Shown: positions 39,543 through 40,860 of the stretch, in pieces
Numbering within the stretch: the first letter of the stretch is position 1
Layout of the letters: every line of letters starts with the position of its first letter
NCBI GenBank assembly: GCA_963844965.1
Contig: CAWJQC010000001.1
Span: 1-48,809 of the forward strand
Direction: 5' to 3'
DNA: 48,809 nt
DNA from: an uncultured bacterium
GTDB lineage: Bacteria; Patescibacteriota; Minisyncoccia; UBA6257; 2-01-FULL-56-20
Program-made: the position numbers and the translations under genes
Notes under the pieces: model-generated
Seen by the model: only the letters and a program-made list of their open reading frames with translations
Database searches by the model: none
What the model was told of the DNA's origin: nothing

Positions 39543-40860
39543 GTGTATATCCTAAACCCTAAATTCTCAATCCTCAATCCTAATTCGGGGCAAGTCATGC
39601 TCATCGCTACGATTCCTCTGGGGAGCGTAATTTTGGTGGCGACTACGATTGCCGGGATGCTTATGGTATATCAGATTCGGCACGCCACCGACCTGGAGAG
39701 TTCGGCAAAGGCGGTTTTCGCCGCAGATGCCGGCGTAGAGTGCGCCCTGGAAGATACGTTCAAACTCAACGGTTGCTCAATGAATTACGGACAGCTGCCG
39801 CACACGCTTTCTAACGGGTCTTCTTATAGGTACACGACGAGCAGCGTGTCGTTGCCGAATCTGGCCGGCTGGTGGATGTTTGACGAAGGCGCGGGCCCGA
39901 CGACTATGGATTCCAGCGGCAATGGAGATGACGGCGTTTGGAACGGAAGCGGTCCGCAACATTGGACTCCCGGGGAAGTCGGGCCTTATGCGGGCGAATT
40001 TAACGGAGTTGATGACTATGTCGCCGTGCAGGGATACAACCCCGCGGTTTTGGAGCCGACCAGAGCCGTGACCGTTACCGCCTGGGTTTACCCTTCCACC
40101 AACTCCGGATATAGGGCGATTGTTCAAAAGGGAACGAACTACTCGGGTTATTTTTTGCGGTTGAACGGGGGAACCTTGGAATCGTTCGTGGCCGGAAATC
40201 CCAACTCGTTGCTCGCGGGAGATGTGCCTACGAATTCGTGGACATTTGTCGCCATGACGTATGACGGTTCAACCCTGACAAATTACATAGATGGGCAGCT
40301 CGTTCAAACGGCAAGCGTGTCAAGTCCCGTGAGCCCCGTTCCCACAGCCGCTTTTATGGTCGACGGCGCCACAACCGGCAATTTTGACACAGGTCAGACC
40401 ATTACCTACTCGGTTTTATCTAACTTACCCAACACTTTTTTTGACGTGCACTACAAATTCAACGGAGCAGAGAAGACGCCTCTCACGAATTTCAGCAGCA
40501 CGGATGCGTACGGCAATTGGAGCTACAGTCAACCCTTGACTTCTGTCTCCACCGGCTCTTACGAGGACTGGCTTGTGTTCTCAAATCCACCCCGAACCAA
40601 TTCCAATCACATCAGTTTCAACGTGACCACCACACCCCAGATTGCTTCCACCGATCCTCTTGATCGGCAGTCGCGGAAGCGGCGAAGATCCTCCTGGTGA
40701 CGAAAAATTTTCCGGTTACATAGACGATGTCCGTGTTTATGGTGCTGCCTTGAGCGAGGGAGATATCTTGAACTTATACTTCGGGGCGTCTCCTCAGGCG
40801 ACCATTTTATCGGAGGGAACCGCCGGTCCGGCATCGCGCGCATTCCTGCTTTCGCTCTGA
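39543..40860 (+). CDS. membrane-anchored LamG/concanavalin-A-like lectin domain protein with an Ig-like repeat domain (same family as the giant gene) inserted inside the LamG fold; frameshift at a C4 run near 40636 joins ORFs 39543..40700 and 40642..40860
   Basis: LamG N-part ([31 protein letters not shown]..), inserted domain [18 protein letters not shown]...[21 protein letters not shown], LamG C-part [41 protein letters not shown] in the other frame. Confidence 0.5.

Follow-up and report, generated by a model that had tools for sequence, protein, structure and literature searches.

A LamG lectin gene at the end of a Patescibacteria type IV pilus cluster appears to carry an Ig-like domain gained in one lineage

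Previous work on Streptococcus sanguinis established the idea of the modular pilin for PilB and PilC, and PilC was shown to consist of a pilin moiety, an Ig-like module and a concanavalin A-like lectin module arranged in series (PMC9934059, PMC8179133). In minor pilins of the GspK/PilX type, a domain is inserted into the pilin fold (PMC8179133). A protein that resembles both is encoded in the stretch of DNA analysed here, the window, which comprises 48,809 nt from an uncultured member of the Patescibacteriota. Like PilC, it is the product of a pilus-operon gene, has an N-terminal hydrophobic pilin-type helix, combines a lectin module of the ConA/LamG superfamily with an Ig-like module, and is presumed to be a tip adhesin. 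The modules of PilC are consecutive, whereas in the window protein the LamG domain appears to be nested in a pilin-like core and the Ig-like domain in the LamG domain; further, the window N-terminus, unlike that of PilC, lacks Glu5 and gives no match to the N_methyl profile (PF07963). The likeness to GspK/PilX is that the extra domain lies within the pilin module rather than being appended to it, and that the gene ends a minor-pilin cluster; the N-terminal segment of GspK, too, is without the conserved Glu5. Unlike in GspK, the inserted module is a LamG domain and not an alpha-domain, and a sequence relationship was not detected, PilX_N matching the core with E=1.1 at best and in one orthologue only (P0003).

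In nested domains generally, one domain is spliced into a loop of another and the parent becomes discontinuous in sequence; Ig-like domains usually have their termini at opposite poles, which makes them awkward for nested insertion. The window protein follows the general pattern, in that the LamG domain is contiguous once the insert is removed and the insert is a complete independent fold. It goes beyond the usual case in that the nesting has two levels, the event can be dated to one lineage through insert-free orthologues (72% identity), and the same family has also been gained next door. CPR/Patescibacteria are thought to attach to host cells by type IV pili, and to our knowledge their pilus-tip proteins are almost wholly uncharacterised.

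A Pfam scan of the window ORFs placed the LamG gene inside a type IV pilus gene cluster, as the last member of a complete operon read from the same strand throughout. On its 5' side are encoded, in order, PilM, PilO, PilB, PilT, PilC, two pilins, PilD, three minor pilins, a BACON/Ig-like protein, a 160-aa protein and a giant protein; the scan found four N_methyl pilins on that strand ahead of the LamG gene, and the NAD-ligase gene for LigA comes after it. The same gene order was found in locus L001 (GCA_040960625.1) and in five Logan contigs (L002-L006), where the LamG gene product is 335-336 aa long. In the window the gene begins as a 385-aa ORF (39543-40700, GTG start, stop codon 40698-40700), and a second frame, shifted by +1, is open from 40627 to a stop at 40858-40860. 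The features of the three adjacent surface genes are as follows.

29994-32585, + strand: BACON/Ig-like surface-protein gene, split by two frameshifts (tblastn with the 846-aa L001 orthologue; Pfam BACON_2, Big_2)
33515-39430, + strand: giant surface-protein gene, in three ORFs with two frameshifts at about 34340 and about 35050 (tblastn with the 1247-aa L001 orthologue)
36724-38402, + strand: domain array in the giant gene, one partial, five full and one truncated unit (profile matches at 36695-38452)
39543-39851, + strand: N-terminal part of the putative pilin-like core, with a 15-residue leader ending in Gly, a hydrophobic helix and then the motif FAADAGVE; conserved in P0002-P0004 and P0010
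39852-40328, + strand: N-terminal five-sixths or so of LamG (Laminin_G_3), PF13385 profile positions 2-127; 69% identity to L001 (protein P0002)
40329-40637, + strand: inserted Ig-like domain, VSPVP-TAAF...ISFNV-TTTP, in frame, 309 nt or 103 codons, with Pro/Ser/Thr linkers at both ends; the edges are best estimates, and each may slide by up to about 15 nt
40638-40655, + strand, frame 0: remnant of the native LamG loop, QIASTD; ACC GAT (TD) corresponds to ACA GAC (TD) in L001, with synonymous differences only
40656-40657, + strand: most likely site of the frameshift, where GATCCTC has a C that the orthologue lacks, so that TD-LLIGSRG spans 29 nt against 28 nt in L001
40657-40785, + strand, +1 frame: last LamG strands (LLIGSRGSG...), PF13385 profile positions 122-150; 76% identity to L001, dN/dS 0.14
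40786-40860, + strand, +1 frame: C-terminal tail of the pilin-like core and stop, nearly invariant among orthologues

No Pfam family was found that recognises the pilin-like core. The Gly-ending leader of 15 residues and the hydrophobic stretch behind it are features of a class III signal peptide and are conserved in the orthologues, here without Glu5 or an N_methyl match; the protein is thus a putative pilin-like one, whose leader and hydrophobic segment look right and which has no HMM support. Relatives of the N-terminal core were found in Paceibacteria, Minisyncoccia, Saccharibacteria and other Patescibacteria, the sole ground on which the analysis itself placed the bacterium with CPR/Patescibacteria. 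Many CPR genomes encode homologues of the core that have no LamG domain (L024, L026, L031, L033, L034, L046, L052, L053, L063 and L073); these have 63-110 residues after FAADAGVE and share the G.AG..RAF tail, against 273-295 residues in the LamG-bearing members. When the LamG domain is deleted from the window protein, one LamG-less homologue (P0010) aligns from the leader to ...RAF, with 46% identity over 119 aa (E=4e-26). Because P0010 aligns across the deleted domain and the same tail recurs in the LamG-less homologues, we infer that LamG is nested in the core, apparently as an insertion in one sub-lineage comprising the window and L001-L009. The gene model of P0010 itself (245 aa, JGI) has the core fused behind a four-helix-bundle '23S rRNA-intervening sequence protein' (PF05635), a fusion that is probably a gene-calling artefact merging two ORFs.

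The LamG domain is in turn interrupted, as the sequence-only reading had claimed. PF13385 matched the 385-aa ORF at residues 155-280 (profile 2-127 of 151, 65 bits) and the +1-frame continuation, 40627-40857, at profile 122-150 (24 bits), and a profile found in two pieces and two frames indicates one LamG domain split both by a segment and by a change of frame. When 40329-40637 and one base were taken out, the match became contiguous over profile 2-150 of 151 and rose to 99.2 bits (cut-off 27.6), and PDB entry 4qvs_A aligned straight over the excised junction (residues 5-205); so corrected, the protein belongs to the Laminin_G_3/concanavalin A-like lectin fold. Aligned with P0002, P0003 and P0004, the frame-corrected translation shows one clean gap of about 100 residues against all three, right before the LLIGS strand. 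The loop left by excision, QTASVSSP|QIASTD-LLIGS, has 19 residues, as compared with 20 in P0002. Judged from the profile and PDB alignments and from the Pro/Ser/Thr linkers, the insert would sit in a surface loop of LamG where it is sterically tolerated; a full-length AF2 model of the protein, built on a four-sequence alignment, was of poor quality (pLDDT 41). Together with the core, this gives an apparent architecture of core[LamG[Ig-like]].

The segment had been assigned to the same family as the repeats of the giant gene, and this was borne out. Blastp against six giant-gene repeats gave identities of 33-44% with E down to 7e-21, and a profile built from the repeats matched 40344-40637 over its full length (profile positions 1-95) with 129.6 bits; the profile includes the insert copy itself, and the E of 7e-21 comes from blastp against the repeats alone. 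The insert also lacks the Cys pair, as had been noted: the pair is invariant in the six giant-gene copies, and H and T stand at those positions in the insert. An AF2 model of the inserted domain had a pLDDT of 90.7 and the fold of an Ig/macroglobulin-like beta-sandwich. No Pfam family matched the domain above threshold, and CBM56 (PF22184) was rejected as its identity (19.3 bits against a cut-off of 27, with partial profile coverage, 10-57 of 75). The insert is one complete, foldable copy of a rare Ig-like family of about 95 residues that has no annotation.

We regard it as likely that these parts make up a layered pilus lectin, consisting of core, LamG and an Ig-like domain grafted in this lineage only, with the one-base break as a separate matter; the case stands on a single assembly. 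The break had been expected at 40630-40640, and comparison with L001 puts it instead at 40656/40657, where the window reads ACC GAT C CTC TTG ATC GGC and L001 reads ACA GAC CTT TTG ATA GGA (TD-LLIG). The extra C lies 19 nt 3' of the insert, in native LamG sequence, and is a separate event from it. As assembled, the LamG gene is translated only as far as 40700; its product lacks the last LamG strands and the C-terminal tail, and would probably not fold. Programmed ribosomal frameshifting was considered and rejected, P0002, P0003 and P0004 being single uninterrupted ORFs; the frameshift site, GATCCTCTT, matches no slippery motif known to us. The out-of-frame remainder is free of stop codons and shares 76% identity with the orthologue. 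Its dN/dS against L001 was 0.14, compared with 0.18 for the in-frame LamG part and 0.07 for LigA. The value of 0.14 downstream of the break implies that the shift is recent or an assembly error.

The two neighbouring surface genes are broken in a similar way. The giant gene, which in L001-L006 is an intact single ORF of 1231-1247 aa, has its two frameshifts at sites of which neither is in an obvious homopolymer; the frameshifts of the BACON/Big_2 gene lie at about 30265 and about 32370, the latter beside GTTTTGATCC. There are thus five frameshifts in the 10.9 kb of three adjacent genes (BACON/Ig, giant and LamG) and none evident in about 18 kb of other genes that can be judged for integrity (those for PilB/T/C/M/D, LigA, the minor pilins and two proteins of 1528 aa and 776 aa), a clustering with P about 0.007 under a uniform distribution. 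This clustering favours the reading that all three genes are decaying pseudogenes, and that the insert is junk in an unselected gene and was never part of a working nested protein. We consider this unlikely. The insert is in frame, runs from linker to linker and has a confident predicted fold; the LamG tail behind the break still has the low dN/dS, open frame and identity given above; and the three genes, once corrected for frame, contain zero nonsense codons. Indels without nonsense codons are more to be expected of consensus errors in strain-variable regions than of decay. Of the five frameshift sites, two have GATC, looked at as a sign of methylation-linked long-read error; this count does not settle the matter. 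Since the remainder of the LamG gene still looks selected and the four similar indels likewise come without nonsense codons, either the whole tip-adhesin module would have been inactivated very recently, or the frame break would be an error of the assembly consensus, the two being about equally likely.

A mis-joining of reads from another locus or strain could in principle have produced the 309-nt segment, the frameshift or both. The window is a single metagenome-derived contig, no second contig with the window LamG or LigA protein was found by exact look-up, and the indels cluster in repetitive, strain-variable surface genes. Such a chimera is nonetheless very unlikely. The insert and the array share exact words of 15 nt or less, which leaves no repeat within the window that an assembler could have collapsed. 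Frame and domain phase are kept at both junctions, and the insert sequence is unique.

The nested domain might also be ancestral or normal in this LamG subfamily and have been lost from the relatives sampled, a thought encouraged by the small number of close orthologues in public data and by the fast evolution of surface proteins in these bacteria. The insert is absent from the four nearest orthologues, P0002 (72% identity outside the insert), P0003, P0004 and L009. In these four lineages, which span 36-72% identity, the loop has 19-20 residues and equals the window loop minus the insert. The domain was not found in 80 LamG loci of reference genomes (L009 and 79 others), and a metagenome scan with the junction region returned ordinary LamG proteins only, including three metagenome loci without the insert. 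An exhaustive profile search of 1.84 billion representative proteins gave 225 carriers of the domain (E <= 1e-3). Among the best 150 of these 225, a local LamG profile found LamG only in the window protein (P0001). Most carriers are large and either have no Pfam annotation or contain other domains of surface proteins, and Pfam scans of ten of them besides the window protein gave almost no annotated domains. Thus LamG and the domain were combined in none of the 80 LamG loci and in none of the 149 other best-scoring carriers, and an ancestral domain would require several independent, precise deletions. We hold this reading to be very unlikely, and for practical purposes refuted by the genomes sampled. 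The sequence-only reading had itself named what would tell against it, namely that the segment be a normal part of the subfamily in many unrelated genomes; the orthologues and the 80 loci are without it. Its proposal that domain shuffling had created a new lectin-Ig fusion is supported by the insert-free orthologues and by the lack of LamG in the other 149 of the best 150 carriers. By sequence comparison the insert is a gain in this lineage only. We take the locus as a clear but not extraordinary case: a real lineage-specific nested insertion, with an architecture unique in the data searched, of a kind of domain shuffling already known in modular pilus adhesins.

The giant gene carries the same family as an array of 6.5-7 units, that is, seven periods in permuted phase and of two subtypes. 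The array begins in mid-domain at YYDDWLVF (profile about 73) and ends in mid-domain at ...NTAGSA (profile 72), and its flanks are contiguous in the orthologue (QGLSPSA | ALFNIEWDPLAEI against QGLWPSSFGNVLFDIQWEPLAEI in L001). This permuted phase could have arisen when a circle cut out of a tandem array integrated again; alternatively, the first and last partial units could complement each other. The array was not found in the giant genes of L001 or L002-L006, and therefore two adjacent genes have gained the same rare family in this lineage. Within the array, units 4 and 5 have 83% DNA identity and units 1 and 4 have 78%, with identical stretches between them (37679-38224, 36806-37075), pointing to recent duplication or conversion inside the array.

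Nothing comparable to this identity among units 1, 4 and 5 was seen for the LamG insert. Codon-aligned over the whole domain, the insert has 36-44% amino acid and 50-60% nucleotide identity to the local repeats, with exact matches of 15 nt at most. In the alignment at the DNA level that had been suggested, the identity of about 75% reported for 37300-37380 was recovered as 75.7% over the 70 nt of 37316-37385, within the conserved C-terminal motif only, and does not hold for the domain as a whole. Local patches reach 76-82%. In a neighbour-joining tree of 137 family domains, the insert grouped with giant-gene units 2 and 7 and with the domain of P0059, an unrelated He_PIG/polysaccharide-deacetylase protein of 969 aa (L089, 5001-7910) encoded on an 898,885-bp CPR chromosome (OY970175.1). 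The P0059 domain has 50% identity to the insert, slightly above any local unit, and it too is without both Cys, from which it follows that a Cys-less subtype exists; no copy closer to the insert was found in any collection searched, and a scan of genome contigs with the single insert as query gave no relative. In P0059 the single domain copy is flanked on each side by a He_PIG-like segment, the two segments being near-identical, and this copy too may have been inserted.

An 11-mer, CGTGAGCCCCG, is common to the 5' junction (40328) and to the boundary of array units 2 and 3 (37381), in the same phase with respect to the domain start. An in-phase 11-mer suggests that the inserted DNA included the tail of the preceding unit, and hence came from a tandem array. 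By its divergence, the insert appears to be an old or fast-evolving relative of the array rather than a recent copy. The earlier statement that the domain had moved between genes is favoured by the in-phase 11-mer and by the subfamily that the insert shares with units 2 and 7; we put it as plausible only, because the divergence (36-44% amino acid identity) is deep and P0059, from another genome, is slightly closer.

That the repeats are silent donors from which gene conversion into the LamG gene varies the pilus tip, the cassette relationship proposed at the outset, is hardly credible: one domain family does occur in two adjacent surface genes with the patches of 76-82% DNA identity, but whole-domain identity of 50-60% and a longest tract of 15 nt are too divergent and too short for homologous exchange, the array units reach 78-83% among themselves and never to the insert, P0059 is closer than the local units, and neither a recombinase nor a reverse transcriptase turned up in those window ORFs that were scanned against Pfam. 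Like Neisseria pilE/pilS and diversity-generating retroelements, the locus has surface or pilus proteins with related copies nearby; unlike them, it shows neither long identical donor tracts nor a template/variable repeat pair, and the ORFs scanned include no reverse transcriptase. The LamG gene was also considered as a retroelement target of this type and was rejected on the same two grounds, lack of a reverse transcriptase among the ORFs scanned and of a template/variable repeat pair.

We return to the layered lectin. A pilin-like core, in which a Gly-terminated leader and a hydrophobic helix are followed by a short globular part and the G.AG..RAF tail, would have received a LamG lectin module in its last loop, and an Ig-like beta-sandwich would have been grafted in frame into the LamG loop before the LLIGS strand. 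Illegitimate or microhomology-mediated recombination would have brought the insert in from a tandem array, with the 'V-S-P' tail of the preceding unit kept at the 5' edge; the insertion would not be recent, and the neighbouring array need not have been the donor. The Pro/Ser/Thr linkers on both sides would let the Ig-like domain project from the LamG surface, and the product is therefore predicted to be a lectin of the pilus tip that displays an additional module for binding or spacing. A broader proposal is that the Ig-like module is mobile within the pilus-adhesin locus, whole repeat periods being inserted in frame into domain loops, plausibly as circles excised from a tandem array and then re-integrated. 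One period would have gone into LamG and exactly seven into a conserved segment of the giant gene. We think this distinctly improbable; if true, it would, together with the LamG grafting, make 'loop grafting' a recurrent means of re-tooling the host-contacting pilus tip in ultrasmall episymbiotic bacteria.

On the layered-lectin reading, the locus and its insert-free orthologues would record two successive graftings into one small pilin-like protein and a parallel gain in a giant adhesin. It would show in a clean natural case how adhesins with nested domains come about, and it would define a domain family of about 95 residues that has no annotation. Should living cells have an intact gene, a pilus-tip lectin of unusual architecture is predicted as its product; if the gene is broken, it documents the loss of a tip-adhesin module in one lineage.

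Just 5' of the pilus operon, 12035-16621 encodes the 1528-aa protein, which is secreted and has NHL repeats, fn3 and He_PIG domains and a C-terminal peptidoglycan-binding domain; PG_binding_1 and He_PIG are also found beside the repeat-family domain in other carriers. On the minus strand, 10658-11935 is a 425-aa ORF with three ASH/HYDIN-like Ig domains that overlaps an 81-aa ORF on the same strand (10465-10710) by 53 nt, and this overlap may reflect a further frameshift in a surface-protein gene.
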